Part shown: piece after piece, positions 13,543-44,242 of the stretch
Layout: each line of letters opens with the position of its first letter
Numbering within the stretch: position 1 is the first letter of the stretch
IMG/VR virus record: IMGVR_UViG_3300014656_006074
Span: 1-45,275 of that record
DNA length: 45,275 nucleotides
Source: a virus
Lineage: Duplodnaviria > Caudoviricetes
Strand: one strand, 5' to 3'
Program-made: the position numbers and the translations under genes
Notes under the pieces: model-generated
Seen by the model: only the letters and a program-made list of their open reading frames with translations
What the model was told of the DNA's origin: nothing
The model's database searches: none

Positions 13543-13552
13543 TTAGTAAAAA

Positions 13553-13972: not shown

Positions 13973-13973
13973 C

Positions 13974-14420: not shown

Positions 14421-14450
14421 GATTTATTTTAATTCCAGTCAAATTATTAT
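14401..14450 (+). promoter_or_regulatory. Putative late promoter 1: palindromic activator site plus -10
   Basis: TAAATCCTAAA-GATT-TTTAGGATTTA at 14401-14426; TATTAT at 14445-14450. The 21-bp core is identical at 30018-30038. Confidence 0.7.
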
Positions 14451-14466
14451 TCAGTGGGAAAAAATA

Positions 14467-14688
14467 ATGGATAAAGACCTCAAATTGGATTTGTTGAGAG
14501 TATTCGTAAAGCATGACGTTCTTCCGGAGACTGCAGTCAGGAATGAAGAAATAATAATCAAATATAAAGAGCTTCGTGAATCCGGCATTACAGGGAAAGA
14601 GGCACGTCATAAACTGGCTGAGGAGTATTTCACTTCGATTAAAAACATAGAATTCATTCTGTACGGGAAAAGGAAAAATGACAAATAA
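14467..14688 (+). CDS. Mor/C-like late transcription activator candidate
   Basis: RNEEIIIKYKEL...G...LAEEYFTSIKNIEFIL HTH pattern; heads the packaging operon. Confidence 0.6.
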   Translation: MDKDLKLDLLRVFVKHDVLPETAVRNEEIIIKYKELRESGITGKEARHKLAEEYFTSIKNIEFILYGKRKNDK

Positions 14689-16036
14689 AAAATTATCGGA
14701 TCTTAAATCGGCAGACTACAATCCAAGAACCATTTCTGAAAAAGCTCTCTCAGGATTAAAGTACTCTATCGATGAGTTCGGTGACATTTCAGGTTTTGTG
14801 TTCAATAGACGGACAGGCAATCTGGTTGCTGCACATCAAAGAAAATCTGCACTCGAACTCTCAGACGGCGATTATGATATCGAAATTATCGATCAATACG
14901 ATACACCGTCAGATAAAGGCACTGTAGCCTATGGCTTTGTTGATTTCAATGGAGAGCGATTTAATTATCGAGAGGTTGACTGGGATTTAAGCAAAGAGAA
15001 AGCCGCAAACATTGCCGCCAATTCACCTACCATCCAGGGTGAATTTACGAGCGGTGTCGCCCTGGTTCTTGAGGATATAAATCTTACTGATAGTTCTTTG
15101 TTTTCTGCATTAGCGTTTAATGAACTCGATATTCCGGATTTGGAAGTTTCCATCGAGGAAGATGATTTTGATGTTGAAAAAGAACTTGAGGCGATTGTTG
15201 AACCGAGAACTAAACCCGGAGATCTCTATCAACTTGGTGTTCACAGATTGTTGTGTGGTGATTCTACTAAGCGTGAGGATGTTGAACGAGTGATGAATAG
15301 TGAACAAGCAAGATTAATCTTTACAGATCCTCCGTATAACGTTGATTACAAATCCCCTAGTAGTTTATCCTATGATTCTACAAAATTCGGTGGTACAGGT
15401 GGAAAGATGTTTAATGATAACAAAAGCGATATAGAATGTTTGGAATTTTACTCTGATGTTTTAAGAAACCTTCATGAATTTTCTACTGATGATGTTACTC
15501 TCTTTTGGTGGTTTGCAAATAAGAATCATACGATTAACAGACAGGCATTTGAAAATACGAAATGGTATTTCTCTCAAGTTGTGATATGGGTTAAAAATAG
15601 TTTTGTGTTCAGTCGAGGTCAGAATTTCCACAGAATGTATGAACCGTGTATGGTGGGTTGGAAGAAAGGGAAAAAGCATTATAAAAATAAAGAACTCAGT
15701 AATCTCGCCGATGTTTATAACCTCGACTATGATGATTTCATTGATCAATTTGATTTGTGGTATGAAAAACGAGATGTGACAAATCAATATTTACATCCCA
15801 CTCAAAAGCCGGTCAGACTAGCAGAACGAGCACTTCGTAGAAACAGTCAGGTTAATGATTTGGTGGTGGATTTATTCGGAGGAAGCGGATCCACAATGAT
15901 TGCCTGTGAACAGCTGGAGAGGAAATGTAACTTGATTGAGCTGGATCCTAAATTCTGTGATGTGATTGTAAAACGATTAATGAAATTCAAGAATGTTTCC
16001 AAAGTTATTCTGAACGGCGAAGAAATAGAGTTCTAA
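14678..16036 (+). CDS. ParB-like N-terminal domain fused to a beta-class N4C/N6A DNA methyltransferase
   Basis: ADYNPR...GNLVAAHQR; catalytic TDPPY precedes HPTQKP and the SAM-binding DLFGGSGST. Confidence 0.9.
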   Translation: MTNKKLSDLKSADYNPRTISEKALSGLKYSIDEFGDISGFVFNRRTGNLVAAHQRKSALELSDGDYDIEIIDQYDTPSDKGTVAYGFVDFNGERFNYREVDWDLSKEKAANIAANSPTIQGEFTSGVALVLEDINLTDSSLFSALAFNELDIPDLEVSIEEDDFDVEKELEAIVEPRTKPGDLYQLGVHRLLCGDSTKREDVERVMNSEQARLIFTDPPYNVDYKSPSSLSYDSTKFGGTGGKMFNDNKSDIECLEFYSDVLRNLHEFSTDDVTLFWWFANKNHTINRQAFENTKWYFSQVVIWVKNSFVFSRGQNFHRMYEPCMVGWKKGKKHYKNKELSNLADVYNLDYDDFIDQFDLWYEKRDVTNQYLHPTQKPVRLAERALRRNSQVNDLVVDLFGGSGSTMIACEQLERKCNLIELDPKFCDVIVKRLMKFKNVSKVILNGEEIEF

Positions 16037-16037
16037 A

Positions 16038-16550
16038 ATGCCACGTGCAAAATCAAAACATACCGATACTATCTGGGTTCGTATAGATTCCGTAATTGGA
16101 CTAATTCTTGAAAATGATCGATATCTCAACAGCAAACGAGTTAAAGAACTATGCAGTATTATTTCTGAAAAATTTGATGTATCCAAAAGAACTGCCGAGC
16201 GATACATAGTTGAGGCAAAAAGAGAAATATCGAAGCTTGGGAAAAAGGATACAAAAAAAGCATTTAAAAAAGCGATTCATGATAGAGAGTTTCTTCTTCA
16301 AAAAGCGAAAGGCGTAAAAGATGATAAAGGATATTATCAGATAAAACCCGATTTCAAACTCGCACTCGAGATTGTAAAGGATCGGGATAAATTAAATGGA
16401 TTGTACTTTGATGAAATAAAACAGACCGGTGAAATAACTATTCGAAATGTCGATTTAAGTAAGTTCACTGAATTCGGATTGGAAAGACTTAAACGTGGTG
16501 ATAAAATTGAAGAAGTATTGATGGATCCTAAATCGGTGAAACAAGAATAA
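16038..16550 (+). CDS. Terminase small subunit (probable)
   Basis: HTH (KFDVSKRTAERYI); directly upstream of and overlapping terL. Confidence 0.65.
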   Translation: MPRAKSKHTDTIWVRIDSVIGLILENDRYLNSKRVKELCSIISEKFDVSKRTAERYIVEAKREISKLGKKDTKKAFKKAIHDREFLLQKAKGVKDDKGYYQIKPDFKLALEIVKDRDKLNGLYFDEIKQTGEITIRNVDLSKFTEFGLERLKRGDKIEEVLMDPKSVKQE

Positions 16551-18097
16551 TGGAAATAACTCAAATACAATTAGCCGCACACGCTGAAGCTGAATTAAGA
16601 AGACGAAGGCAGGAGCGTCTGCAACATTACAGCACACAGAGAGAGTTTTATCAGACTCATCCATTGGATTATTTGAAAGATAGATTAGGCATTATTCCTG
16701 AAACAATAAACTGGGAAATGTTTCCTCAGTACAACGAACACAAGTGGGACGGCACTAGAAATCCGTTTATGAAAGTTCTGGAGACCTTAGCCGATGGCAA
16801 ATGGTGTGGAGTGGAATCTGCCACCGGTGTCGGTAAAACATTTCTCGGAGCCGCAATTACTTTATGGTTTCTCGAATCGTTTGAAAACAGTAGAGTAATT
16901 ACGACAGCGCCTAAAGCTGATCAGCTTTTCTCACAGATTTGGGGTGAAATATCAAAACTGTTTCCAAGCTTCAACAAAGGCACCCTGCTGAGTTCCGGAG
17001 AATTACGAATGAATAACGATCCGCTGTCTCTTTGGAAAGCAGAGGCATTCGTTGCTGGTGTTCAGACTAATGAGGAGTCAACAAAGAAGGCACAGGGTTT
17101 TCATGCAGAGCATATGTTAATAATTCTTGAAGAAACTCCCGGGATCCCGGCTCCGACAATAGCGGCACTTCAGAATACTTCCGGAGCTCCTCACAACCTA
17201 ATTCTTGCATTCGGTAATCCTGATCACCAGTTGGATAATTTGCATCGATTCTGTGTGCAGGAAAATGTGGTTCATGTTCGCATTAGTGCTTACGATCATC
17301 CGAATGTGGTCCTGAATAATCACAGCATTATTCCAGGCGCGGCTAGTACAGTCGGCATTCAAAGAATTATTAGTCGGTTCGGACAGGACACGCCTCTTAC
17401 TCTCTCACGTACACGTGGAATTTCGCCGGCTCAGTCGATTGACGCATTAATAAAAATTGAATGGTGCATAAATGCTGTGGAACAGTTCAAGGATTTTCTT
17501 GATGACAACAACAATGTGAATTTGGAGAAGATTATTGGTGATAAAGGTTTGGGTGTTGATGTTGCGAACAGCGAGTACGGTGATAAAGCCGCATACTGCC
17601 ATGGGAAAGGAAATGTTTGTTTTAAGATTGAGGACTTTCAGTGTCCGGATTCCAACCAGCTGGGTCATCAGGTTTATTTGTTAGTTGGTGCCGAGAATAT
17701 AAGTCTGAAATGTTTGGGCATCGATGGAGTTGGAGTTGGCGCCGGTACGATTAACACGCTTAAAGAATATGGAATACGTGATTCAGCTATTAATCTTCAG
17801 GGAGCCGCACAGCCACTTGAAATAGGTTTGGAAGAGAAGTTTAATAATCTTAGAAGCCAGATGTGGTGGCAGACTCGTGAGGATTTACGTCTTGGTGATG
17901 TAGTAATGCTGAACGACGAGGAGCTGATTGCTGATTTAACAACTCCGAAATTCGAAGTAAAGAACGGAAAGATACATGTTGAGAGTAAAGAAGATATAAA
18001 GAAACGACTTGGAAGATCTCCAAACAAAGGTGATGCTTTTGTTTACTGGAACTGGAGACGTAAACCGAGAAGCAGAAACATCGAATTTCTTAAATGA
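16550..18097 (+). CDS. terL: Terminase large subunit
   Basis: Walker A SATGVGKT, TTAP, Walker B IILEE, GNP; nuclease motifs GVDVA, IDGVGVG, SPNKGDA. Confidence 0.92.
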   Translation: MEITQIQLAAHAEAELRRRRQERLQHYSTQREFYQTHPLDYLKDRLGIIPETINWEMFPQYNEHKWDGTRNPFMKVLETLADGKWCGVESATGVGKTFLGAAITLWFLESFENSRVITTAPKADQLFSQIWGEISKLFPSFNKGTLLSSGELRMNNDPLSLWKAEAFVAGVQTNEESTKKAQGFHAEHMLIILEETPGIPAPTIAALQNTSGAPHNLILAFGNPDHQLDNLHRFCVQENVVHVRISAYDHPNVVLNNHSIIPGAASTVGIQRIISRFGQDTPLTLSRTRGISPAQSIDALIKIEWCINAVEQFKDFLDDNNNVNLEKIIGDKGLGVDVANSEYGDKAAYCHGKGNVCFKIEDFQCPDSNQLGHQVYLLVGAENISLKCLGIDGVGVGAGTINTLKEYGIRDSAINLQGAAQPLEIGLEEKFNNLRSQMWWQTREDLRLGDVVMLNDEELIADLTTPKFEVKNGKIHVESKEDIKKRLGRSPNKGDAFVYWNWRRKPRSRNIEFLK

Positions 18098-18107
18098 GGA
18101 AAATGAA

Positions 18108-19565
18108 ATGTATTTAACACAGTCAGATATTGTGAAACTTCAATTAACAACTTCCAACAACTACAGATTTTCGGAGATCATCAAATCTCTTATCGATGAG
18201 GATAAAAACAGTGATGAAAAGAAGGATATGGTTGACGGTGAAAATTATTACAACGGCAAACATGATATCTTCAAACATGATTTCAGAAAGTTTTTTATTG
18301 ACGGTGTAGAACATATCAACAAAAATAAAAGCAACAACCTGATAATGAATGCTTTCTTCAGATATCTTATCGACCAGAAAGTCGGTTACATCGCCGGCAA
18401 TTCAATTCTATTCAAAGGAGCTGATGAGCAGTTCGTAAAACTTATAAATGACAATCTCAGTTTCTGGTTTAATAAATTGTTTCAAAAATGGTTACGTGGA
18501 TCCAGCAACAAAGGAAAAGAATTTTGTTATGTATACATTAATCAGCAAGGGCTGTTCGATTATTCTATTATACCGGGACAACAAATAATTCCTGTATATG
18601 ATACTCAGTTTAATGAAACGTTGGTCGGAGTAATAAGATACTACCCGGTCACAAAACAAGAGACATTCAACAGTCCGAAAATCATATTAAACAAAGTTGA
18701 AATCTACGATTCGGAAAAAGTGTATTATTTTGCTGAAGAGCGAGGTGGGAAATATATTCCGGATCCGGATTACAATCCTAATCCGAGATATCATATTTAC
18801 AAGTGGAACAGTCTTTTCCCAAATGAACAGAAAGGAAAAGGCTGGGGCCGGCCGCCGTTTATCGAATTGAAAAATAATGAGGAAGGAATCAGTGATCTTA
18901 AATTCACAAAATCTCTTATTGATAATTATGATTTTAATCTGAGTGCATTCAGTAATAATCTTGCGGACATTGCCAAAGCAATATGGGTATTGAAAGGCTA
19001 CGAAGGCACTAAACTAAGTGAGTTCATGTTTAACTTAAATAGTTACGGCGCAATAAATGTGAATGCCGCAGGTGGTGTTGAACCTAAAACTAATGACCTT
19101 CCGAATGAAGCCCACGACAGTCACATGGACAGAATCGAAGATAACATTTATGTTTTCGGTTTCGGTGTTAATCCAAAAATTGACAAAGCCGGTTTATCAC
19201 CTTCGGGTATCGCTCTCGAGTATATGTATGCAGGTCTGGATATTAAAAGTAACATCGCCATAACAGAAGCCACAGTTGCGGTTCACGAGTTTATGTCATT
19301 CCTGGCTGATTATTATTTGATAACGAAGGGATTAAAATATAATGCCGATTTGATTGAACCGATATTTGATAAACATTTGATCATAAATGAGGCTGAAAAG
19401 ATAACAAGCGTTAAAGATAGTTTTGGAATTACATCTCGCAAAACAGCTCTCTCAAATCATCCCTGGGTTAAAGATGTTGAAGCTGAACTTAAGCAGATCG
19501 AAGATGAAGAAGGAACTCCTATAAATTTTGAAACCGAAACTCGAGTGACAACTTCAGATGAATGA
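18108..19565 (+). CDS. Portal protein, SPP1 gp6-like
   Basis: YYNGKHDI, IDQKVGYI.G, PFIELKNNEEG.SDL..K.LID.YD, PSGIALEY motifs; start moved to MYLTQ. Confidence 0.92.
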   Translation: MYLTQSDIVKLQLTTSNNYRFSEIIKSLIDEDKNSDEKKDMVDGENYYNGKHDIFKHDFRKFFIDGVEHINKNKSNNLIMNAFFRYLIDQKVGYIAGNSILFKGADEQFVKLINDNLSFWFNKLFQKWLRGSSNKGKEFCYVYINQQGLFDYSIIPGQQIIPVYDTQFNETLVGVIRYYPVTKQETFNSPKIILNKVEIYDSEKVYYFAEERGGKYIPDPDYNPNPRYHIYKWNSLFPNEQKGKGWGRPPFIELKNNEEGISDLKFTKSLIDNYDFNLSAFSNNLADIAKAIWVLKGYEGTKLSEFMFNLNSYGAINVNAAGGVEPKTNDLPNEAHDSHMDRIEDNIYVFGFGVNPKIDKAGLSPSGIALEYMYAGLDIKSNIAITEATVAVHEFMSFLADYYLITKGLKYNADLIEPIFDKHLIINEAEKITSVKDSFGITSRKTALSNHPWVKDVEAELKQIEDEEGTPINFETETRVTTSDE

Positions 19566-20472
19566 GAAAGAAATAAATGAACGAATCGCAAAGCTGCTTA
19601 ATAATGCTGATTCAGATATTGATTCACTATTAAAAACTTATGAAAGCAGCATAATTAAGACCTACCGGGAGGGATTGGATGAGATAAAAAAAGATATTGC
19701 TTATATATTTGAAAAGTACGGAGGCAAAGTCGAGTACCCGGACATGATCAAATATAACCGTTTAACTAATTTAGAAATACAAATCACCGAGATTATAAAA
19801 TCACTCACAAATGAAAGTATTAAAACAACTACGTCAGCCCTCAAAGATATTTTTACAACTAATTATTATAAAACTGGATTAGCTCTTGAAACCGGACTAG
19901 GATTTGAACTTGGATTCGGGAAAGTCAATCCTGATTTAGTCCGTGCTGCTGTTCTTAATAAGCTGGACCGCATTAAATGGCCCGAACGTTTAAAGGATCA
20001 CGCTCAGATATATGTGAAACAGGTTAAAAGTGATATTACTCAGGGTTTACTCCGTGGGAAAGGTTACGGTATTATTGCAAAGTCCGTTACGAAAAGAACC
20101 GGTATGCAAACCTGGAAGGCTTTAAGAATCGTAAGAACCGAAGGTCACAGGGTGCAGAATGCTTCCCGCCTGTTGGGTTACGATACTTCAGAAGCCGCGG
20201 CAAAAAGATTAGGCATCGGTACAGAGCGGATCTGGATCCACACAAAAGTTGGAGAATACCGGAAAGATCATGCCTTGATGAATGGCAAAGCAGCTGATAA
20301 ATATGGAATGTTTACTCTCCCTTCAGGAGTAAAAACCGAAGGCCCCGGACTTTCAGGAATTGCTGATGAGGATATTAATTGCAAGTGCACTACAAGGATG
20401 GGATTTAGGAATTTGGATGCACTTGTGCAAAATAAAGATTTAAATTCATCCAGATTATTTGAAAATTTGTGA
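19558..20472 (+). CDS. Minor head morphogenesis protein (SPP1 gp7/MuF-like), short form
   Basis: RIVRTEGHRVQN...W...RKDH..MNG...PG...DINCKC; follows the portal. Confidence 0.88.
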   Translation: MNEKEINERIAKLLNNADSDIDSLLKTYESSIIKTYREGLDEIKKDIAYIFEKYGGKVEYPDMIKYNRLTNLEIQITEIIKSLTNESIKTTTSALKDIFTTNYYKTGLALETGLGFELGFGKVNPDLVRAAVLNKLDRIKWPERLKDHAQIYVKQVKSDITQGLLRGKGYGIIAKSVTKRTGMQTWKALRIVRTEGHRVQNASRLLGYDTSEAAAKRLGIGTERIWIHTKVGEYRKDHALMNGKAADKYGMFTLPSGVKTEGPGLSGIADEDINCKCTTRMGFRNLDALVQNKDLNSSRLFENL

Positions 20473-20506
20473 GAGAGGAAAGTCAAACGAAACTGATTTC
20501 AATAAC

Positions 20507-21250
20507 TTAAAAATCATCTTCAATTTGTTTCGAAGTAATTATTTTTGAAGTAAGAATATCTATTGATTCGCGTGAGTAATTTTCCTTAATATTTCTTAAG
20601 GAATTAATCATTGTTAGAATCTCTGTTTCATTATTGATAATAATATACTTAATATCCTCTGGAGTAAATTTTAATGAAAATTTCCGAAGACTTAAGTTCG
20701 CCGATTTACGAGAATCTGAATTATTATAATCCTCTTTTGTGATAAAGGGTAAAGGATCATCTATACCTGACAAATCAGGCACAAATCTCCATTCTCGTTC
20801 ATCATAATATCTAAATGATTCATAACTTTTTTTGTTTCGTTTAAATATGCCTTCGTATGGTTTGATGAAACCCAGGAATTTCAACAATCCTAATGAAGTA
20901 GATAAATTTAATTTGTCTTGATTTGTTGTATAGTTTATTAAGATGTCATTGATGCTGTCAGACAATATTGAATTATGACTTAAATACAAAATTGGATTAA
21001 TACCGTTTGTTTTGCCCCAACTTTTAGTTAGGCCTAATCCATAATTACCATAAATCCCAATGTGCTTTTTTATTTGGGATAGAGAAAGATCACAAAAACA
21101 AACCATTGCGATTGCGCCATCAAGAGAACCTTTTTTAAAAGAATAAATCTCATAGCAATATTGCGGATAGAAATTATTTTTCAAAATACTTATTAATGAA
21201 TGTAAATTTGGCGTAAAATGAAATAATGAGTTAGAACTTACTAGTGACAT
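20507..21250 (-). CDS. AbiGi-family abortive-infection protein
   Basis: SLFHFT...SILKNNF.P.YC.E...MVCFCDL...H...YG.YGLG..K.W...GINPILY...YDEREWR. Confidence 0.8.
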   Translation of the reverse strand: MSLVSSNSLFHFTPNLHSLISILKNNFYPQYCYEIYSFKKGSLDGAIAMVCFCDLSLSQIKKHIGIYGNYGLGLTKSWGKTNGINPILYLSHNSILSDSINDILINYTTNQDKLNLSTSLGLLKFLGFIKPYEGIFKRNKKSYESFRYYDEREWRFVPDLSGIDDPLPFITKEDYNNSDSRKSANLSLRKFSLKFTPEDIKYIIINNETEILTMINSLRNIKENYSRESIDILTSKIITSKQIEDDF

Positions 21251-21256
21251 GAAATT

Positions 21257-22738
21257 CTAATCTCCGTGGTAAATTATTTCCTCGTTTACAATTTTTATTG
21301 CTTCTTGATCAAGATTATATGATTCACTTCGTAAATCGTTTGCCTTAAGTACTGAATCATTTATCTCTTTTATCTTATTTGGATCTTTTAGAATTGGAAT
21401 CTGAATTCTTGCCAATTGGTGATTATCTATTTCATCAACGACCGAACCATATGTGAAGCGTTTAATAAGCTCATAACCATAATCGGTATTTAACCAAGTA
21501 TATAAATAGCCAGCAATATCTGAATTACTGGGCACTACTCTAATAATATGTTCGTTGGCAACAAAACTATTCCAATGTTTGGGTGTTATCTGAACTTTGC
21601 CGATTGTACCACTCCTAGTTATTAGAATATCATTTTCATGTATCGTTAATTCATTTTGGATTCTTGATGAGTGTTTAGTTAATGATAAATATTTTTTGTC
21701 TCTCGGATCCAATTCTAATATTTGTTTTCCACCAAAAAATACAGCGCCTTGATCTTCTTCAACATAAATTCTCTTAAAACGACCAGGTAGGATAATATTA
21801 CTACTCAACTCTGAATCTCCGAGCAGTTTTATTTCTTTTGATTTTTTCGGCAACAATTTGAGAATTTCTTTAACTATTGGATGATGATATGAGCCATCAA
21901 AACGATTTGATAAATTCTTTGATCTGACTGTAAAGTTTTCAATATCGTCTTTTCTAATAAAATATTCTTTTTCAATATCTTCGATTGGTGGTAAGTCTAA
22001 TTCTGTTAAAAGAATTTTTCGAGCAGTTTCAATCAGTTCGTTTGACTCGTCTCTTAATCTGAAAGATTCTTTAATAAGTTCATCAATTTGATTTTTGAGT
22101 TTTTTGCTGGGATTAGGAACTTTAATATTTGAAAGGTGATCGGGTTCGATATGATTAATTACTGAACCATAGTTATTTGTCTTCAGTAATAGTTGACCAA
22201 TACTGGTTTTCAAGAAAGAATACACATAACCTAAATCATTATCATCATACAATCTCATTCTTATTACATCATCTGAAAAAACTCTATTTGCCAGTGTTTT
22301 TGAAACAAGAGTTATATTACCAATAGTACCGGATCGTGTAATGAGCAATTCGTTTTCATTAACTTTTAATTCTTCAAAATTGACTTTTGTCTTTGGAGAA
22401 ATAAATTTAGTTGGTTGGGGATTGATTTCTAATAACTGTGATGGCATATAAAACTCTATACCATCTTGTTTATTAACATAAATACGTTTGAAACGAGTTG
22501 GATATATAGCGCTTTGGATAAAACTATCACCTGAGAATAAATTTAGTAAAGGGTAAGTGCTGTTTTTAATCAGTTCACGTGCATGCTTACTCTCGATATT
22601 AAAAACATTAGCTTCAAATCGATATTTCTGTTCTGCAACTTCTGATAATTTTATTGATGTCCATTTAACATCTTCATTTTGGTAGAATATAGGTTTAGAT
22701 ATATTTTCTCTTAGATTTTTATTCTGGAGTGCTACCAC
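21257..22738 (-). CDS. R-M specificity subunit with two TRDs (HsdS/BcgI-beta-like)
   Basis: Internal duplication: RFKRIYV...LITRSGTIG...YGSV occurs twice. Confidence 0.88.
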   Translation of the reverse strand: MVALQNKNLRENISKPIFYQNEDVKWTSIKLSEVAEQKYRFEANVFNIESKHARELIKNSTYPLLNLFSGDSFIQSAIYPTRFKRIYVNKQDGIEFYMPSQLLEINPQPTKFISPKTKVNFEELKVNENELLITRSGTIGNITLVSKTLANRVFSDDVIRMRLYDDNDLGYVYSFLKTSIGQLLLKTNNYGSVINHIEPDHLSNIKVPNPSKKLKNQIDELIKESFRLRDESNELIETARKILLTELDLPPIEDIEKEYFIRKDDIENFTVRSKNLSNRFDGSYHHPIVKEILKLLPKKSKEIKLLGDSELSSNIILPGRFKRIYVEEDQGAVFFGGKQILELDPRDKKYLSLTKHSSRIQNELTIHENDILITRSGTIGKVQITPKHWNSFVANEHIIRVVPSNSDIAGYLYTWLNTDYGYELIKRFTYGSVVDEIDNHQLARIQIPILKDPNKIKEINDSVLKANDLRSESYNLDQEAIKIVNEEIIYHGD

Positions 22739-24789
22739 TGAATACCCTCACGTTTTTTCCATTGAGCAAAAATCTCAGGTATCAAAGGCGTTTGGTCATC
22801 AATTACCTTTTTCTTAGATGCCTTTTTAACGGTTGCAACTCCTTCGGATGTATGACCTAATTCTAAAAAATTTACATCGTCATCTGGTACAAGAATTTCG
22901 TTGCCATATTTATCCCTCTTGAAAAGAGGATTTCCTCTTTTATCATGCCCTACTTTATCAATAATTGCCATGAATATTTCATAATCAATCATAAAATTTT
23001 TCGATTCTTCCTTAAGTATTTGCTCTTTATTCTTTTTCTCAAGAATTAAAATTGAAGTCTGAGTTCCATTTCTCGGTTGGAAAGTATCGGGATGTAAGTC
23101 TATACTAGCAATAATTTTTGTTTTCTTAATTAGCCATTTTCTAATATATCCTAAACCAGGAGAACCGAGAATCGAATCTGGTAAGACGATTGCCAATCTT
23201 CCACCAGGTTTAAGAAACTGAAGACATCTTTCAATAAAAAGCTGTTCCGGAGGAGCTGAGGATTGAAGATTTGATGTGATCGTCCATTCATCACTTTTTA
23301 CTTTCTTCCCTTTTATTTCATATTGTTCATTTCGCCAAATATAGCCAATATTAAACTGCGAAAGTATGTGATGATCACGAATAGGTAGCTTACTGCCAAA
23401 CGGTGGATTTGTAATAATAACATCAAAGAATTCAATGTTATCTGAGTTGGTTATTTCGCGTGGATCAATTCCTAAAGCTTTACAAAGCTTTTCTTTAAAT
23501 TCTGGTTCCCATTCATGAGGCGGTAGAAGAGAATCGTTTTGCAGGATATTACCGCTTCCGTCATTGTTCATAACCATATTCATCTTGGTTGCTTTAACAA
23601 GATCGGGATTAATATCAAATCCATAAAAATTGCTTTGAGCAACTTCAGATATTTTTTTGCGCATTAATTCTTTTTCGTGGTCGGACCATTCATGTCTTTT
23701 TCTTCCAAATTCTTTTTCAGCATCTTTATATAAATGTTCAGTAACATGATTCATAGCTAAAACAAGAAATCCGCCCGTTCCGCATGAGCTGTCACAAATT
23801 TTTTCATGTGGTTTTGGATTAACCATTTCAACAGCCATGCGCATAATATTTCTTGGAGTGAAAAATTCACCTCTGTCACCTCGAAGATTGGCGCCAACTA
23901 ATTCTTCATATGCTTTGCCTTTAATATCAATGTTAGTTTCGAGTAAACTATATTTCTGAAGTTCAAGAATTATATAGGCAAAACTTCTTGGTTTAAGATT
24001 TATTTGATCGGCAGCGTCGAATATTTTTGGAAATCTTTTTTTAACTTTATCAAATATCAGGTTAATTCTATTTTTAGCGCTTAGCTGTCCGTCTGGATTA
24101 TTCAACTCACTCGAAGTAATATAAAAATCTAAAGGCTTAGGGACGTTTTGTTCATCTAATATTTTACAGAATATGACTTTAAGAAACTCGAAAAATGCTT
24201 GTTGCTTTTGATATCCATCGACAGTATAAATATGGTTATGACATGTTCTAAATACAAAAAGCAAGTTATCATCAGAAGCTTTTTTTAATTTATTTCGTTT
24301 TGGTCTCTCAATTTCTTCAATAGTAGTATCGGTAGAAGGAATATCAATCCATTCAACAAATTGCCATTCATCCCCAATTCTTACTTTTTTTAGTGCTTGT
24401 TTGTATTTACCATTTGTCCACATGCCCCATTCGCAATTAACACAAGCAGCCATATAAGATTTTAATTGTTCAACTCCATCATTTTTATTTGATGGCTGAA
24501 CCTTTTCTTCTTTACACTCAATGATTATTTGAATGTTATCTTGTATATGTTCTTTCCCTTCCGGGAATATTGCTAAATCAACCCTCGGTTTATTACTTCC
24601 TTGTTTTATTGTTAATTCAACTTCAATTTGTTCTTTAGAATACTTGTGTTCATTAACTAAACGTTTCTCGATTGTTTGACGAACATATTCTTCGGGAGTA
24701 TCTTTTCGGAATTTCCCATCGATATAGTCACAAATTTTGCCTTCGGGGATTGTAATGATTTCAGTGGGAAAGATTTTATTTTTTGCCAT
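22732..24789 (-). CDS. Fused endonuclease and N6-adenine methyltransferase (type IIB/IIG, BcgI-alpha-like)
   Basis: N-terminal PEEYVRQ...VDLAIF...IIECK...QLKSY...WTNG nuclease; GEFFTPR, DSSCGTGGFL, NPPF. Confidence 0.9.
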   Translation of the reverse strand: MAKNKIFPTEIITIPEGKICDYIDGKFRKDTPEEYVRQTIEKRLVNEHKYSKEQIEVELTIKQGSNKPRVDLAIFPEGKEHIQDNIQIIIECKEEKVQPSNKNDGVEQLKSYMAACVNCEWGMWTNGKYKQALKKVRIGDEWQFVEWIDIPSTDTTIEEIERPKRNKLKKASDDNLLFVFRTCHNHIYTVDGYQKQQAFFEFLKVIFCKILDEQNVPKPLDFYITSSELNNPDGQLSAKNRINLIFDKVKKRFPKIFDAADQINLKPRSFAYIILELQKYSLLETNIDIKGKAYEELVGANLRGDRGEFFTPRNIMRMAVEMVNPKPHEKICDSSCGTGGFLVLAMNHVTEHLYKDAEKEFGRKRHEWSDHEKELMRKKISEVAQSNFYGFDINPDLVKATKMNMVMNNDGSGNILQNDSLLPPHEWEPEFKEKLCKALGIDPREITNSDNIEFFDVIITNPPFGSKLPIRDHHILSQFNIGYIWRNEQYEIKGKKVKSDEWTITSNLQSSAPPEQLFIERCLQFLKPGGRLAIVLPDSILGSPGLGYIRKWLIKKTKIIASIDLHPDTFQPRNGTQTSILILEKKNKEQILKEESKNFMIDYEIFMAIIDKVGHDKRGNPLFKRDKYGNEILVPDDDVNFLELGHTSEGVATVKKASKKKVIDDQTPLIPEIFAQWKKREGIQW

Positions 24790-25326
24790 TATAACTCTTA
24801 ACCATAGTATTATCGGGTTTAGTAAAGAAATTAATTATTATTTATGACTACGCTTATAAAAATTGAATTAATGCAGTAAGAAAATACAAATCTTTAGATT
24901 GTACCAACTAACTCTTATTTGTTTGCCAATAAAATTTTATTTATATAAAATACCAATTTTGGAAACCCAAACCTAATGTGATTTAATGGAATATCGTATG
25001 ATTTAATTCAATCAAGAGTCATTCGTTATGTTTTAATAAAGTTTTAAAGATCAAGATTACCAATTAATAATTTTAGGATTACATTAAACTGCTTGGTTTT
25101 AATTTAATTATCTATAGTCTTATGATTTATTTCTTCTAAATTGCTACTAGTCATAATAATTCCGAAATGTATAATGTCATTAAAAAAACGGCACCTGAAT
25201 GGGAGAACCAAAAGGTTTAAACCGCTTCTGAGCTATACAAAAGAAATAATTCTCTATCACTTGATGTTTGACTTTTCAAAAAATATTGGATAATACATAA
25301 AGAAGATTTTTCGGCACTATGCACAT

Positions 25327-26136
25327 TTACATCCGTGAAAAAGCAACTCCAAATTGTTTGTGTTTTAACTTTGCTTGGTAGTATTTCGGTTTAATATTTT
25401 TATTACTAAATAATCGTTTTATATTTTCTATTGTTGTGCAAGTTGCATTTACTCCAAAATAAATACCCGTAAAAATATCTTCGGGAAATGAAATTTCTTC
25501 ATCAGGGTGACTAGTGAAAATTAGTCTCCATTCTCTTTCGTATTCCCAATCTTTTGATTTTGTTGTAATCCAGTCTATATAGTCAAGGGAATAAATATCA
25601 GAAAGGAAGGGAGAAATTATCGGATATTCTGATTCATATTTAATTTTTTTCATAAATATCAATTCTTGTATTTTTAGATAATTATTACATATTGATAATA
25701 ATCGGTTTGCATCAAACTCAATACAGAATCCTCTATGACAATCAGAATAATGTGCCCACATCAAAAGATTATCAACATTTTCCGCTAAAGAAAAAATGCC
25801 GTAATATTTATTCGCAACTTCATTCATTCTCTTAGTCATTAATTCTGGCGATTTAATAATCTTTATATTTTTGAGATATTTTTTTTTTGCTAGGCTTTTT
25901 TGGATACTTAAGGGCATATTCGGATATGAACTTTTAATATGATCCAAAAATCGATTAAGAAGCTGGTTCGTGGAACCGCTTTCAAAATTTGGGTAAATTC
26001 GACAATCAAATGGATCATTAAAATTTTTAGGTGATGAAAAAAACAAAAGATTTTCTCTTAATAATTTTTGATAATTATTATTTGCATCACAATGTCGATA
26101 CTTATAAAGTTTATTAGGGGGTTGATCATCAATCAT
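25327..26136 (-). CDS. DUF2971-domain protein
   Basis: LYKYR...FNDPFD...LMWAHYSD.HRGFCIEF...K...WEYEREWR...IYFG. Confidence 0.88.
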   Translation of the reverse strand: MIDDQPPNKLYKYRHCDANNNYQKLLRENLLFFSSPKNFNDPFDCRIYPNFESGSTNQLLNRFLDHIKSSYPNMPLSIQKSLAKKKYLKNIKIIKSPELMTKRMNEVANKYYGIFSLAENVDNLLMWAHYSDCHRGFCIEFDANRLLSICNNYLKIQELIFMKKIKYESEYPIISPFLSDIYSLDYIDWITTKSKDWEYEREWRLIFTSHPDEEISFPEDIFTGIYFGVNATCTTIENIKRLFSNKNIKPKYYQAKLKHKQFGVAFSRM

Positions 26137-26218
26137 ATTTTAACAAAAGGACAATGGTTGCAAATAGAAAAGTTAAAGCGATTACTAAATTAGTATTATC
26201 TTTGATCCAATTTAACAT
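26129..26218 (-). CDS. 29-aa hydrophobic ORF at the start of putative cassette 4
   Basis: RBS GAGGA; MLNWIKDNTNLVIALTFLFATIVLLLKYD; stop overlaps the first codons of DUF2971. Confidence 0.5.
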   Translation of the reverse strand: MLNWIKDNTNLVIALTFLFATIVLLLKYD

Positions 26219-26240
26219 TTAATCCTCACTCATTGATGTA

Positions 26241-26466
26241 GTACAATGTTGCTGCCAATAACTGGCGCCCCAGAACAAAAAAGCCGATTAGAAAGACAAC
26301 ACCAATAATATAGCAGACGGTGCTTAACTTTAATCGTAAGCGCAGTTTGCATCAATGTTATTTAATAGAACTATCATTAACAAGTTAGCCGAAACGGAAC
26401 GACTAACTCTAAAACTTCTAAACTGCCAAATGCCAAAACAGCGTCCGGTTGAGTTGCATGTCCTGT
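26241..26466 (-). repeat. attC site 3 (degenerate, 226 bp)
   Basis: Arms homologous to attC1 (TCAACCGGACGC ... CCAGTTATTGGC), but the cores are mutated: R'' ACAGGAC and R' ATTGTAC. Confidence 0.7.
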
Positions 26467-26468
26467 GT

Positions 26469-27587
26469 TTACATTTTATTGTAAAAGCTTATCGCTAAAT
26501 CAGCAAAGATTCTTGTAATATATATCCAATTTTTAATAGTATTAGTTCTCTCTATATCAAATGGATCAGGGATTAAAGTACGTTCAATTTGCGATTCTTT
26601 AGCGTGAACGATCGAATTTCTAAAAGAATACAATTGCGTTGATAATTCGTCAAAATTATTACTTTTAGTAATTTTTTTACGCACTGCATATTTACATAAC
26701 CTATTTCTCACAGAGTTCGTTGTTATAATTTTGAGCAATCCCTTCAAATACTCCAATTCTCCCTTTAGCGACGCTAGTTTGATTAATTCCGCATCAGTTA
26801 TATTTTGATCGTATCGTTTGCTATTTACTGTCTTATTTTTATAACTATCGAAGAAATATTCAAGAACCCGATAAAACGTAAGAAATTTATTTTCGCCTTT
26901 TAGTGAACATGCATAATTGTATAGATTAAGTGGATTAGTGTCCATAAAATTCTTGTGATTGCGTATCCTCTTCAGTGACAATTTTTCAAGTTTTTCGTTC
27001 AACTTATGAAATTCATCGTAATCCGTATCAATACCGAGATGAGTCAAAGAAGCCGTAACTCCTGTATTAACAAAATAATGAGAGTTTAAGTAGTAAAGTG
27101 ATTTGAAGAAAATATTCATATAATTTTCTGTGGAGTTTTTAAATATTTTCAATGTAGATAATTGCTTAAGTCGATCAGGATCAATATCAGGATCAATATA
27201 AATCTGACTTAACAATAAAACAGCCAACGAACTCGAATCGCCGCACTCAATAAAATCATCGCCAATCTTGAATGATAGTTTATCTTGAAATGGCCATCTT
27301 TCGTCCCAATTGTAGAAATGGAAATCTGGATGTTTCAAGTTTATAAAATATTCGCAATACGAATCAAAAGAAAATCCACAAGTTGGATAATAAACTAAAT
27401 TATTGTTCCTTGTAATCATTTTAGAGAGGTTTAATTCGTCGACATTATTTTCAGTAAGAACCAATAATTTTGAGCAATGAGGTAACGATATAAGAACTTC
27501 ATTTGATTTGAATTTGTAATTTAAATCATCTCTATTATCAAGTCCCATTTCACATAATAGTTCGACGAACTTACTTTCTATTGCCAT
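26469..27587 (-). CDS. Cassette 3: C-terminal HEPN-motif protein (ApeA/MAE_28990-like)
   Basis: FLTFYRVLEYFF...LYSFRNSIVHA (R-X4-H). Start moved to MAIESK because the track's extra N-terminus lies in attC2. Confidence 0.72.
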   Translation of the reverse strand: MAIESKFVELLCEMGLDNRDDLNYKFKSNEVLISLPHCSKLLVLTENNVDELNLSKMITRNNNLVYYPTCGFSFDSYCEYFINLKHPDFHFYNWDERWPFQDKLSFKIGDDFIECGDSSSLAVLLLSQIYIDPDIDPDRLKQLSTLKIFKNSTENYMNIFFKSLYYLNSHYFVNTGVTASLTHLGIDTDYDEFHKLNEKLEKLSLKRIRNHKNFMDTNPLNLYNYACSLKGENKFLTFYRVLEYFFDSYKNKTVNSKRYDQNITDAELIKLASLKGELEYLKGLLKIITTNSVRNRLCKYAVRKKITKSNNFDELSTQLYSFRNSIVHAKESQIERTLIPDPFDIERTNTIKNWIYITRIFADLAISFYNKM

Positions 27588-27596
27588 ATTTTTAAC

Positions 27597-27803
27597 ACTC
27601 AACGGCGTTGCCCATAAGCCGTCCGCCCCAAACAGCGATGACAAATAGACAACGAATATTTATAATTTATAGCCGCCAGTAAATTTCACAAAACTGGCGG
27701 CGACCTAACTACTTAGAACAAAATGCCGAACGAAAAACGTAAACCCTATACTTGCACTTGCCTCAAACCGTTTCGGCGGTCGGTCTTGAGCGGCTTGTTA
27801 TAA
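27597..27803 (-). repeat. attC site 2 (207 bp)
   Basis: Minus strand: TTATAAC AAGCCGCTCAAGACCGACCGCC ... GGACGGCTTATGGGCAACGCC GTTGAGT; R' is a perfect GTTRRRY. Confidence 0.88.
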
Positions 27804-28857
27804 CGCTCTTCTCAACATCCGTAATTATAATTTCTATTCCTTTATTTGTTAAGCCAATAAACCTTGACATTACTTCAGCATATTTTTCTGGTTCAGGATC
27901 CTCACCTTTTAATTCTAATATTATTCTACCAACTCCACACCATTTTGGATCGTACTTTATATTACAATCAAGAAAATCATTTTCATAAGACCTCACTACA
28001 TCTTCTATTTTTGAGAATATAGAAGCATATTTCTTGTTCTCTAAATGAAGTTCAATTGTAGGACCGTTAAAACGATCCAAAAATTCATAATGAACATTAG
28101 CATCCCAAGTCTCTTTAATAATTTTTCTGTGGTTAGAAGCACTGTTTCCTATTAAAAATTCTTCGCTTTTATAAATATTTTTATATGCTGAAATAATCGA
28201 TTCAAATTCTTTACGAGCAACTCTTGGTTTACTTTTACTTTTTATCGAAAAACTCTCGGATGCTCCATAGACTACAAAACTGGGGACTAATATTAAACCC
28301 ACCTCTGAGTTTTCGTATTTTTTTATAGTAGTTAAACGTACATCTAAATCGCTATGGTCATTAACAAATCTAACAATTCTTATTAAATCATCCCTTGCTT
28401 CATCTATCGCAAGTATAACTCTTATGTTCCCAGCTCGCAGATTAGTTGCGCAGATACTCCATATTGTATCGAATTTCTTTTCATCACCGTCGGCAATTAT
28501 TTTAATTGTAGATGACAAAGCACCAGTCAGTTGATAATCTAACTCGTCAATTGTAAGTAATGATAATGCTGATACATAGTCAAATATTTGAGCTAATATT
28601 TCACGGCGCGATTCTTCATTTTTATAAAGCTTACATTCAACAACAATTGGCACTCCGTTTGAATCTATTAATAATATATCCAACTGACCAGCCGATAAAA
28701 GCCGAAATTCCTTTGTTACATAGCTTGCAGAATATTCATTTTCATGAATCAGTAAATTTGGTGATTGGCATAAATAATCTCTTAATTCTTCTTCTTTTGA
28801 ATAATTGCTTCCCGCTAAAATATTTAGTGATTGATTCTGTGAATGCAATATTGGCAT
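27763..28857 (-). CDS. Cassette 2: NucS/EndoMS-like PD-(D/E)XK nuclease-domain protein
   Basis: EEELRDYL...EF...GQLDILLID.NG.PIVVECKL...AQIFDY. RBS GGAG before MPILHS; the last codons read into attC2. Confidence 0.78.
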   Translation of the reverse strand: MPILHSQNQSLNILAGSNYSKEEELRDYLCQSPNLLIHENEYSASYVTKEFRLLSAGQLDILLIDSNGVPIVVECKLYKNEESRREILAQIFDYVSALSLLTIDELDYQLTGALSSTIKIIADGDEKKFDTIWSICATNLRAGNIRVILAIDEARDDLIRIVRFVNDHSDLDVRLTTIKKYENSEVGLILVPSFVVYGASESFSIKSKSKPRVARKEFESIISAYKNIYKSEEFLIGNSASNHRKIIKETWDANVHYEFLDRFNGPTIELHLENKKYASIFSKIEDVVRSYENDFLDCNIKYDPKWCGVGRIILELKGEDPEPEKYAEVMSRFIGLTNKGIEIIITDVEKSVITSRSRPTAETV

Positions 28858-28877
28858 ACATACTCCATTATTATGCG

Positions 28878-29101
28878 TTATAACGGCGTTGCCGCTAACC
28901 GGCAGCCCAGAACAGCAATGCCGTATTTGCAAACTACGCCAAAGTTTATGCAGACAATGATTATTTTTCAGAGCAATCATTGGCTGCTACAATTTAGTTT
29001 TTATCACTACTGCCGAACAGCAATGTTATTTATTTCACAAAACTTAAGAACAGCACCAAACCCCCATGAATAAAGGCGTCCGGTTGATTTGCTTGTTATA
29101 T
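28878..29101 (-). repeat. attC site 1 (224 bp)
   Basis: Minus strand: ATATAAC AAGCAAATCAACCGGACGCC ... CTGCCGGTTAGCGGCAACGCC GTTATAA. On the bottom strand TAACCGG pairs with CCGGTT(G)A, leaving an extrahelical G. Confidence 0.9.
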
Positions 29102-29108
29102 AGCATTT

Positions 29109-29840
29109 CTAAGCAGATGAATTATTATCACTTTTCCCTAATACTTTTTCTCTTAGTTGCTGGATAAAATTAGATCTTTCCTTTTTAATTTGTGGCACTA
29201 CATATATATCATACAAAACCGTTTTCAGTGTCTCAATAATCAAAGTGAGATTATTAGAATCCCATTTATCCCAAGATTGCTCATGAATTTTATCACTGGT
29301 CATTTGTTGAATATGTCCAAGAATATCAAATAATGCTGGATCAGAATCAGAATATTTTTTCTTAAGATTTTTAATTTTCTCATCATATTTATCACCGGAT
29401 ATCTTTTCAATAATTAGTAATTCATAAATAGATTTTCTCATGCATGCAGAAGCACCGGTTAGATAATTCATTTTCATACAACCATCAGCCTCTGAGATCA
29501 ATTCACGAAGAATCCGTGGGATTCTATCGTCTAGAGCGAAAAATGAAGTTGGAACGGAGTAGAATAGTTTAGAATCTATATCAATATTCGATTGAAAAGT
29601 ATAATTACTATAAGCTTTCAAATTACCATTACCGATGTCCTCAAAAGATAAATGCATTGACATTTTCTGACAAGATTTACATCTGACAAAATATACATGG
29701 CATTTTTTATCGTTAGACCAATCGAAAGCATTATAGCTATTTACTAGCTTATAGGTAACGTTATTTCTATTGCAGTAAGGGCAATTGAAAACATTTTCAT
29801 CAATAAAATATTTCTTATCTAAATGAGACATATCTGCCAT
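29109..29840 (-). CDS. Cassette 1: Zn-ribbon plus DUF4145 (HEPN-like) protein
   Basis: CPYC...CKSC; IP..LRELISEA..C.....TGASACMRKSIYEL...KI..L...SDKIH; RBS GAGGTG. Confidence 0.75.
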   Translation of the reverse strand: MADMSHLDKKYFIDENVFNCPYCNRNNVTYKLVNSYNAFDWSNDKKCHVYFVRCKSCQKMSMHLSFEDIGNGNLKAYSNYTFQSNIDIDSKLFYSVPTSFFALDDRIPRILRELISEADGCMKMNYLTGASACMRKSIYELLIIEKISGDKYDEKIKNLKKKYSDSDPALFDILGHIQQMTSDKIHEQSWDKWDSNNLTLIIETLKTVLYDIYVVPQIKKERSNFIQQLREKVLGKSDNNSSA

Positions 29841-29861
29841 TAGACACCTCTAAATTTTGCT

Positions 29862-29900
29862 ATATAACATATACTTATCAGGATTTTACTGTAACGTCCA
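29862..29900 (-). other. attI-like primary recombination site
   Basis: Minus strand TGATAAG-TATAT-G|TTATAT: L-like box, 5-bp spacer, core with crossover at 29868/29867. No attC arm upstream; an extra GTTACAG at 29895-29889. Confidence 0.65.
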
Positions 29901-30017
29901 ACGAAGATATTATTTTCCCTAAATCAATAAACAATCATATTGGATATATAGCCCTCATTTAAACTTAACTGAATACACATTTAAACACAAGAGCTTTTAT
30001 AGTTTGATCAAAAGTAC

Positions 30018-30065
30018 AATCCTAAAGATTTTTAGGATGACCTGAATTACTGCATACTATACATT
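30018..30065 (+). promoter_or_regulatory. Putative late promoter 2: palindromic activator site plus -10
   Basis: AATCCTAAAGATTTTTAGGAT identical to 14403-14423; TACATT at 30060-30065, the same offset as TATTAT in copy 1. Confidence 0.7.
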
Positions 30066-30178
30066 TCGAACGAAAACTTAATCACTCAATGGCGCACTTG
30101 AAATGTTCGGCGCAAAACTGAACGGTAGCTCTCAGGCAGGTGGGTGACTGCTAATAAAAACTAATAGAGGTGGAACGA

Positions 30179-30805
30179 ATGTCTTACTTAAAAAAATTGA
30201 AAGAGTTGATCGGAGATGAGGCTTTCAAAAAAGTGGAAGCTGATCTGAACGGGAAAGAACTCATTTTGAACGATGGGAACTACATCCCGAAGAAAACTTT
30301 TGATGACAAACTTGATGAGATTAAAACACTCACCAAGGAAAAAGAAACGCTTACCGGAGATCTCAAAACTTCGCAGGATGGTTTGAAGAAACTTGAAGAT
30401 GAAAAGAAATCCGGAAATCAAACCGTGGAGCAACAGATTGCGGATCTTAACAAAAAAATTGATGAGCAGAATAACAAGATCGCTCAAAAGGATAAGGAAC
30501 TGCAGCTGAAGAATCATGAATCTTTGCTGAAGGATTCACTTACGGGAGCAGGAGTTAAGAACCCTAAGAATCTGAAGCTTCTAATGAAAGAGTTCGATCT
30601 CGATAAACTCGAAGTTGACAAAGAAGGAAAAATTAAAGGCTTTGATGATTCTGTTAAAAAGCTTCAGGAAGATTATAAACCGTTGTTTGGTGAAGAACAA
30701 TTTAGCGGTAATCCTCCGGGACAAGGTAACGGAACAACAACTGAAGATATGAAAGAAATGTCAACAGAAGATTTTTACTCGAGTGAGGTATTCGGTAAAA
30801 AATAA
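30179..30805 (+). CDS. Capsid scaffolding protein (GP20-like)
   Basis: DGNYIPKKTFD, coiled coil, AGVKNPK...IKGFDD..K.L.EDYKPLF; RBS GAGGTGG. Confidence 0.88.
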   Translation: MSYLKKLKELIGDEAFKKVEADLNGKELILNDGNYIPKKTFDDKLDEIKTLTKEKETLTGDLKTSQDGLKKLEDEKKSGNQTVEQQIADLNKKIDEQNNKIAQKDKELQLKNHESLLKDSLTGAGVKNPKNLKLLMKEFDLDKLEVDKEGKIKGFDDSVKKLQEDYKPLFGEEQFSGNPPGQGNGTTTEDMKEMSTEDFYSSEVFGKK

Positions 30806-30836
30806 AGTTTTGCATTAATTGACTAATGGAGTAAAA

Positions 30837-31772
30837 ATGCCAACACTCAAAGAATTATCCGTATTGTTCGCAAAGAAGCAACCGAAGCAGGTAGAAAGCA
30901 TCACAGAGGATTCACCGATTCTTGATATGATACCTTTCGAGGAAGCTTCACATGAACTGTGGAACGTGTACGAAGATGCCACTGAAATCACCGGGGCAGG
31001 TTTTGTGGATCTGGACGCTCCGCTTCCTACAGTCGGTATGAAATCCGAACTGAAAAAAGTTGATCTCTCAATTATGGGTGGTATAGCTCAGGTTGAAGAG
31101 GATAAAGCCCAGATGTACGGCGGAGCAACACGTTATTTCGCCAAACAGGAAAAAGCGATACTCAGAAAATCCGGCATGACAGCCGAGTTCGCAATTCTGT
31201 ATAATATGATTAGAGCTCACGCTATCGCTAATGAAAATACAATTAACGCCGGTGGATCGAGTAATAAGAATCATTCTATTGTTGCGGTTAGGTTTATGCC
31301 GCAGGAAACGACCGGACTTTATTCACCAAAAGGTTTTAAGAATGGTGCAATGCTGGATGTTAAAGCAATTAACGGCGGCAATTTAATGAACATAAAAGTT
31401 TCCCGAAACGGACAAACTGTTGAAGTTCTTGGTTTCCAGATCCGTTACAAAGGGTACTTTGGTTTCCAGATTGCGAACAAAATTTCTATTTCAGTAATCG
31501 CGAATGTTGATCGTGTATCGACTACTAAAAAACTTCCTACAGCAACTCAAATTGATGATTTACTCGCAATGGTGAGAGCTAACAACAGCAGTACTTATCT
31601 TTTCTGTCATCCCAAAATTAAATCCGACTTAAAAGAAATCAGAGGTACACGAATCAGTATAACCTCACCAAATATTAATCAACCGATACTTCTTGAAAGA
31701 TGGGATAATATTCCAATTATTACATCTTACAACTTTCTGGATGGTACCGAACAAAACGTTTCATTTACATAA
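30837..31772 (+). CDS. Major capsid protein (HK97 fold, BPP-1-like)
   Basis: Follows the scaffold, ~311 aa, SPILDMIPFEEA...WDNIPIITS; RBS GGAG. Confidence 0.85.
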   Translation: MPTLKELSVLFAKKQPKQVESITEDSPILDMIPFEEASHELWNVYEDATEITGAGFVDLDAPLPTVGMKSELKKVDLSIMGGIAQVEEDKAQMYGGATRYFAKQEKAILRKSGMTAEFAILYNMIRAHAIANENTINAGGSSNKNHSIVAVRFMPQETTGLYSPKGFKNGAMLDVKAINGGNLMNIKVSRNGQTVEVLGFQIRYKGYFGFQIANKISISVIANVDRVSTTKKLPTATQIDDLLAMVRANNSSTYLFCHPKIKSDLKEIRGTRISITSPNINQPILLERWDNIPIITSYNFLDGTEQNVSFT

Positions 31773-31783
31773 GGAGGTAGTCA

Positions 31784-32197
31784 GTGGCTAATCAACTTAA
31801 CTATAATGGCATTATCCGCTCTGATGCGGATTATATGGCAAAAGCTCAGACATTACCTCAAAATGATACGGCTGATGGAAATGGAGGTTCATTCGAATAC
31901 GCCAACACTCAGGCTTCTTTAGAGGTAATTGTTATCGTAAATGAAGAGATCACATTGACGGATCTAAAATCATTAACGATCAAATTGCAGGATAGCGCGG
32001 ACAATTCTGCTTTTGCTGATTTACAAACTCTTTATACAAAAACAAGTTCCGGAGGAGATACTATCCCTGCGGATACGGAGCTCGGAAGATTTGTTTTGCC
32101 GACAACGACTAAAAGGTATGTAAAGGTTGTTTTAATTAGTGACGATGTAGCTATAGCTGGTAAGGTGGATATCTTCCCAACTTATCTGCCGAGATAA
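31784..32197 (+). CDS. Capsid cement/decoration protein (Bbp16-like)
   Basis: LTIKLQDSADNSAF...RYVKV...AGKVDIF jelly-roll pattern; RBS AAGGAGG, GTG start. Confidence 0.7.
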   Translation: MANQLNYNGIIRSDADYMAKAQTLPQNDTADGNGGSFEYANTQASLEVIVIVNEEITLTDLKSLTIKLQDSADNSAFADLQTLYTKTSSGGDTIPADTELGRFVLPTTTKRYVKVVLISDDVAIAGKVDIFPTYLPR

Positions 32198-44235: not shown

Positions 44236-44242
44236 ACAAGAT

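Follow-up and report, generated by a model that had tools for sequence, protein, structure and literature searches.

An integron cassette array with an attI-like head and no intI, in a variable slot between head genes of a groundwater prophage

The stretch of DNA analysed here, called the window, is a single provirus record of 45,275 bp (IMGVR_UViG_3300014656_006074), a virus integrated in a groundwater bacterium. Between its minor head and scaffold genes, on the minus strand, it carries a real CALIN (cluster of attC sites lacking integrase: two or more attC sites with no nearby intI), at the head of which stands an attI-like site. The explanation that we slightly favour is that an orphan promoter-attI module sits in a prophage hotspot and was loaded with cassettes by an integron integrase acting in trans. 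From the entry site onwards the array consists of:

29868..30017, minus strand: leader module, a promoter-like block followed by some 85 nt up to the cassette entry G|TT; colinear with L171 (a sister prophage remnant) and L237 (a chromosomal contig of the draft host-species genome G118), not in distant phage relatives
29952..29991, minus strand: promoter-like block, the putative cassette promoter; most conserved part of the leader, also present alone in L171 and L241
29865..29878, minus strand: attI-like core ATAAGTATATG|TTA, crossover after G 29868
28884..29867, minus strand: cassette 1, 984 bp, closure 11/11
28878..29105, minus strand: attC 1, cores intact, crossover after G 28884
27603..28883, minus strand: cassette 2, 1281 bp, closure 10/10
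27597..27806, minus strand: attC 2, cores intact, crossover after G 27603
26247..27602, minus strand: cassette 3, 1356 bp, closure 7/10, 3' end probably immobilised
26241..26469, minus strand: attC 3, a family member with both cores decayed (GAC, ATT)

An initial annotation of this DNA had described three homologous elements with attC anatomy and two cassettes closing on themselves. All three elements were confirmed at their minus-strand positions, and their homology and the cores of sites 1 and 2 stand as described, as do the two closures; the third site proved to be decayed, and the right spacer to be 9 nt long instead of 6. Cassette 1 begins with GTTATATAGCA at G 29868 and is complementary at 11 of 11 positions to 29105-29095; cassette 2 starts at G 28884 and is complementary at 10 of 10 positions to 27806-27797. 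At attC 3, GAC replaces AAC and ATT replaces GTT; this site is regarded as decayed because its close host copies, the closest of which is 83% identical, read AAC and GTT. Unitigs of run X1, possibly the source run, bridge all three G|TT junctions, and one contig of X3 bridges the second.

The L''/L' boxes of sites 1 and 2 have the form AAC-N5-NNTCAA, with one extra base, 5 nt from R'', and of 183 host copies 169 have TCA at the position of the L box. From L' to R' the spacer measures 9 nt in the window and in 170 of the same 183, a set that was seeded by a pattern with 9-nt spacing and with which the arrays found through intI agree. In classical attC sites this spacer is 6 nt, as against 9 nt here, and the classical attC of a phage contig (L327) reads alike minus three extra bases. 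The 9-nt right spacer is a variant of this lineage, and standard attC models may under-call the family that carries it. Minimum-energy folds of the window sites contain 0-2 outer pairs, and since 10 or more outer pairs were found in only 12 of 51 host copies the fold is little informative; a search of Rfam returned no relevant family for the elements. A profile of 51 host repeats, on the other hand, matches the three window elements at E values of 5e-33, 2e-33 and 2e-29 and has no other match in the window.

These profile matches, together with arrays beside IntI in the host lineage, identify the three elements as attC sites of a real integron family, that of the host lineage, the Ignavibacteria, and bear out the attC reading of the initial annotation. 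In G001, seven family copies follow an IntI of 437 bits (TIGR02249, cut-off 265) and the cassettes close likewise; arrays of 8 and 12 copies adjoin IntI in G234 and G268, and the repeat also occurs in arrays beside intI in G116, G191 and others. Overall, IntI over the cut-off is present in 60 of 301 genomes of the class. A scan of a species-genome collection for the right-end motif gave at least 136 stretches, and 42 of 78 loci among the matches listed bear the names Ignavibacteria or Melioribacteraceae. The attC sites of the Ignavibacteria (L167, L266 and L283, for example) are 185-245 bp long with the 9-nt right spacer. At L246, L260, L261, L266 and L283, intI lies on the array strand with attI downstream of it (the inverted type), and at G001, L259 and L263 it is divergent from the array.

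The window itself has no complete integron, that is, no intI beside attI. Its best protein against TIGR02249, encoded at 44322-45275, scores 54 bits, and a six-frame search of the window gives 36 bits at best, both against the cut-off of 265, in keeping with the annotation's remark that intI was missing. The window's two tyrosine recombinases were considered as IntI and ruled out by scores far under 265.

The annotation had also called the entry site attI-like. Fourteen host attI sites were located via the closure of the first cassette beside intI, and over 14 nt the entry site is identical to two of them, the attI of the L246 and L266 integrons, both with intI on the array strand. This 14-mer is found in three loci within the 1.58 Mb compared, namely the two attI sites and the window's own copy. 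When the GTT sites of the window are scored with a matrix of the 14 attI sites, the entry site ranks first of 1690, or 63rd of 1690 if L246 and L266 are left out of the matrix. The promoter-like block upstream may resemble the Bacteroidota TAnnTTTG promoter; a sigma-70 scan of the block was at chance level (3 sites versus 1.8), and a scan of viral contigs with it gave 0 matches. At L241:1680-2100, tandem copies of a repeat of about 60 bp lie upstream of the lone promoter block, which precedes an aminotransferase-like gene.

The leader recurs outside the window, so that a defined site of 150 bp is found in three contexts with different downstream DNA. The same prophage is carried, at 100% identity, by a 221-kb metagenome contig (L168), whose host DNA is 99% identical over 5.2 kb to G118, a draft genome of the host species drawn from the class of a Melioribacteraceae genome. 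G118 appears to be without the prophage, since it matches window positions 13000-32000 only in attC and leader. On its non-phage contig L237 the leader is colinear over 170 nt (z 12) and stands directly before a YbjQ-like gene, which has an attC-like site (imperfect closure) and a second partial site. The attC-like sites at L237:1175-1525 and L319:7321-7531 are lengthened by right-arm insertions with one stretch in common, which may be a miniature element using attC as its target. Besides this locus G118 has four more intI-less arrays of 2-5 attC, three of them on contigs under 9 kb; five cassette arrays were noted on contigs C107, C145, C96, C104 and C117 (L317-L320, L242), with no IntI found in the draft.

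The second further context is L171, the decayed remnant of a sister prophage that lies with the window's prophage on one host contig; it shares both the 150-bp leader and the junction from leader to scaffold gene. Counted from the G|TT, window and L171 are 85% identical at -170..-86 and 70% identical at -86..0, where the alignment scores 78 (shuffles 34±6, maximum 55); past the G|TT (0..86) the score is 46 versus 36±6 for shuffles, not above the shuffle maximum. The first gene after this core in L171 encodes a 164-aa beta-trefoil-like protein and has only a closure-like word of 8/9; its relatives, at 39-40% identity, were found in 3 of 151 genomes with no family attC beside them. As to the forecast of different content at the same G|TT in related prophages, L171 does diverge there, and its next gene is at most a candidate cassette. 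L171 and L237 both differ from the window after the core, and the next gene of L237 is cassette-like, with the imperfect closure mentioned above. A stretch of 11 nt common to the end of attC 3 and L171 may be due to chance.

Under the explanation of an orphan promoter-attI module, a single entry of the leader into the slot would have preceded the split of the two prophages, and the G|TT would then have received the cassettes, the oldest, with the decayed attC 3, now standing at the far end; decay is indeed confined to the attC most distant from the entry site, and the slot of L171 also contains half an attC. During lysogeny, transcription of the cassettes from the promoter-like block would run against the late genes, and the cassette genes would defend the lysogen against other phages. 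The integrase could have come from a host intI that is unassembled or has since been lost, or from an earlier host. A wider proposal, which we put forward tentatively and consider doubtful, is that in the Ignavibacteria a promoter-attI module, portable and integrase-free, shuttles between chromosome and prophage slots and makes a satellite integron of the temperate phage, which would use IntI in trans to sample the lineage's defence cassettes again and again and would bring them to new hosts.

Several results weigh against loading of an attI-derived module in trans. The attI matrix is weak (leave-one-out scores from -3.7 to 9.8); the likeness of the leader to DNA adjacent to intI fades beyond about 30 nt, with z of 2-3 at 60-90 nt for the two best; and a profile of the leader gives no significant match in the intI-flanking loci examined. 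Because of this fading likeness and the lack of a significant profile match, descent of the leader from an integron platform, judged on sequence, is plausible and no stronger. For a host IntI available in trans, as the annotation assumed, the G118 draft gave no support, having no IntI over the cut-off; the search that the annotation recommended for same-family attC together with intI in the host yielded the attC arrays and not the integrase. The gene after the G|TT of L171 has no family attC; a degenerate attC behind it is not supported, alignments to attC 1-3 being within the shuffle range and the fold having z 0.5. Only one filled array is known, and runs X2-X4 (contigs and short pieces) show the same content, with no joint skipping exactly one cassette, although such joints may exist beyond these contigs. 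With IntI missing and the L171 cassette putative, the platform may or may not be active.

A different history, which we hold to be possible but less likely, is that leader and cassettes were assembled as an orphan array on the chromosome and entered the slot once, passively, by illegitimate or homology-aided recombination, with no insertion taking place on the phage. The host species does have the leader before a chromosomal cassette (L237), along with the four intI-less arrays and no IntI found in G118; the slot accepts unrelated blocks in relatives; the heterogeneity of the window attC sites (51-57%) is within the range of host arrays (0.48-0.92); and further on in the L171 slot half an attC and another copy of the leader's promoter block are fused, which indicates that rearrangements without integrase occur in the slot. 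Against such a single capture, window and L171 share the junction from leader to scaffold and differ from the G|TT on, so that a later replacement would be required that broke by chance at the core, and the three cassette genes turned up neither in the G118 search nor in the loci examined. Quite improbable, finally, is that the leader is an ordinary moron promoter region, not derived from attI, whose G|TT was a fortuitous attG struck by a host IntI and later stacked with cassettes: IntI inserts at mere GWT sites, from which small CALINs may arise according to the accessible text of 10.1101/2022.09.11.507474, the TAA-N5/6-GTT geometry is found at 90 of the 1690 GTT sites of the window, the C107 array of G118 begins at an unrelated site of this geometry (a TAA-N6-G|TT and no more, with a divergent gene of housekeeping type upstream of it), and the promoter block is found without the attI half in L171 and L241, but the site shares 14 identical nt with two true attI, and a second, chromosomal locus, independent of the phage one, has a cassette behind a homologous leader, which is unlikely under random use of GWT.

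The content of the cassettes looks like anti-phage defence, a prediction from sequence and structure models in line with the annotation's remark that integron cassettes are known to carry anti-phage genes:

29109..29840, minus strand: cassette 1, a 243-aa protein with Zn-finger and HEPN (DUF4145-like) in a RAZR/PD-T7-4-like architecture, predicted defence RNase
27763..28857, minus strand: cassette 2, a NucS/DUF4268-like nuclease of about 364 aa, frame ending inside attC 2
26469..27587, minus strand: cassette 3, a predicted RNase of 372 aa whose C-terminal domain is HEPN-like (MauJ/ApeA-like)

The cassette 1 protein has four Cys invariant across 48 sequences and a weak PADLOC match to PD-T7-4 (E 8e-5); the protein query was not found in 166 family genomes. 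Its model has a pLDDT (predicted local distance difference test) of 81, and the C-terminal domain superposes on HEPN 2hsb with Z 11.3 and root-mean-square deviation (rmsd) 3.2 over 113 aligned residues, a match to be read with the caveat that Z under about 13 is not conclusive for helical domains. Foldseek gave no match at E≤0.001, 9y9c being at E 0.58. In its layout of Zn-finger and DUF4145-like HEPN the protein is like RAZR/PD-T7-4, which, in the accessible part of PMC13017515, is activated by ring-shaped phage proteins and cleaves RNA; its own scores to that family (PADLOC, and Foldseek to 9y9c) are weak and its activity is predicted only. For cassette 2, NCBIfam NucS is matched at E 1e-4 and PADLOC PDC-S11 at E 5e-11, and among the Atlas neighbours NucS_C occurs in 15-31% of members and DUF4268 in 14-29%; the reading frame runs through R'' and stops inside attC 2 (27763-27806). 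In cassette 3, R323 and H328 are invariant in 10 sequences, an R-x4-H arrangement that we take to be the HEPN motif; Pfam MauJ is matched at E 0.007, and the best folds are HEPN toxins with the middling score of Z 7.0 (rmsd 3.3, 110 aligned).

The cassettes occupy part of a larger variable slot. Terminase, portal and minor head genes lie on the plus strand up to 20472, scaffold and capsid genes follow from 30170, and between them is a minus-strand block of 9.5 kb with lower G+C content. The cassette block of the initial annotation is real, and the variable slot around it is wider than was thought, 20507-30017, with four further defence-type genes that have no attC:

19558..20472, plus strand: minor head protein, left flank of the slot
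20507..24789, minus strand: rest of the slot, a type I-like methyltransferase with HsdR-N (MAD2-like), a specificity subunit (MAD5-like) and AbiGi, without attC
25327..26136, minus strand: DUF2971/PDC-S31 gene, possibly a fourth cassette whose attC was lost; a 32% homologue begins directly after a family G|TT in L058, and here there is no downstream attC
30018..30041, no strand assigned: conserved palindrome ATCCTAA...TTAGGAT, which bounds the variable slot on the phage side and at which the likeness to four distant phage relatives stops; variant in L169
30170..30805, plus strand: capsid scaffolding protein, right flank of the slot

Five distant relatives (L001, L002, L003, L005=L170 and L169) have a scaffold identity of 67-70% and share the scaffold leader only up to the palindrome at about 30018-30041. 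Their slots, covered in part for L001 and L002, contain either nothing (0.3 kb) or unrelated cargo, restriction-modification systems for example, and the leader or an attC occurs in 0 of the 5. Since these relatives carry other cargo with neither attC nor leader, we consider the slot a general hotspot and the cassette site specific to one lineage, and a cassette platform as a general trait of the phage family is not borne out. Scaffold relatives were found in 3 of 401 class genomes, at 37% identity and with no attC in those loci.

Related loci were not retrieved when viral contigs were searched by minor head and by portal, nor did GenBank phages match attC 2 or the capsid protein. A pattern scan of viral contigs gave 0 matches with a pattern that fitted only one window site. 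Fifteen further viral-contig pattern matches were rejected as family attC, as none has a left arm and the family's flanking stem is absent. Another scan of viral contigs yielded five loci. Four have left arms of other attC types (three complete with classical spacing, one at a contig edge or unclear), and the fifth is the right half of an attC of the Ignavibacteria family near a contig end. The IMG/VR contigs L327, L328 and L330 carry classical attC, some of them in small-gene arrays, in unrelated phages.

Cassette arrays in phages are not new, contrary to the initial annotation, which knew of no such arrangement. Surveying 10,705 phage genomes, Qi et al. 2023 (PMC9892861) counted 17 CALINs and showed five phage-borne attC sites to be recombined by IntI1. 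One of these CALINs, in Shewanella prophage M16-3, lies between structural genes and has an attI of its own; the supplements list further CALINs, among which there may be closer cases. The M16-3 record contains a complete integron with intI, and five small genes between baseplate and tail-completion genes that we take to be its CALIN array. As far as that account goes, M16-3 is like the window in having an attC-bounded array without adjacent intI inside a phage and flanked by structural genes; it differs in also having a complete integron with intI, where the window has none, and the window differs in its 9-nt right spacer, its defence-like cargo and a leader that recurs in a sister prophage and in the host chromosome. 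SALIN (single attC lacking integrase) and attG insertions, as described in the available text of Loot et al. (10.1101/2022.09.11.507474), which contains no mention of prophages, also place cassettes outside the platform by IntI acting at a distant site, whereas the window has a 14-nt match to real attI cores and three cassettes behind a conserved leader. Complete integrons have been noted in Ignavibacteriae (PMC9024848, in the part accessible). The sedentary integrons of the Ignavibacteria share the attC family and the attI core with the window, which in contrast has no intI, a short array and a prophage location. With the anti-phage integron cassette banks of 10.1101/2024.07.02.601686 and 10.1101/2024.07.02.601719, in so far as their available text describes them, the window has in common single-gene HEPN and nuclease cassettes.

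Prophages have accessory or defence hotspots (morons) with variable cargo between conserved genes. The window resembles them in its variable cargo between head genes, which here includes restriction-modification and Abi (abortive infection) genes, and is unlike them in that part of this cargo is attC-bounded behind an attI-like site. Neither the recurrence of an attI module without intI in prophages nor the 9-nt attC geometry was described in the literature searched, which left most subscription journals aside. Phage CALINs are thus already published; the leader shared across contexts and the 9-nt attC family go beyond the routine. The locus bears on two open questions, the swapping of defence genes in prophage hotspots and the origin of CALINs far from intI. 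If active, the site would form a direct link between two known reservoirs of defence genes, the arrays of integrons and the hotspots of prophages. The attC family with its 9-nt spacer also lends itself to gauging the degree of asymmetry that IntI accepts.

Some minor features of the two prophages were also recorded. Two tyrosine integrase genes lie at opposite ends of the window (1-1222 and 44322-45275, both on the minus strand). A tRNA-like 3' piece, presumably of tRNA-Asp, precedes the second of them at 44192-44275 and also bounds the L171 remnant, which suggests tandem islands at one tRNA. In L171:3135-10258 an integrase fragment is fused to a minor-head fragment, followed by slot cargo and a truncated scaffold gene; this remnant retains its cargo, most structural genes being lost. 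In the window, the stretch 30040-30150 before the scaffold gene is strongly conserved in all relatives and looks structured, possibly a late-gene regulatory RNA or operator. The early module of the phage (7005-12454) contains an SbcD/SbcC-like nuclease pair and a helicase.

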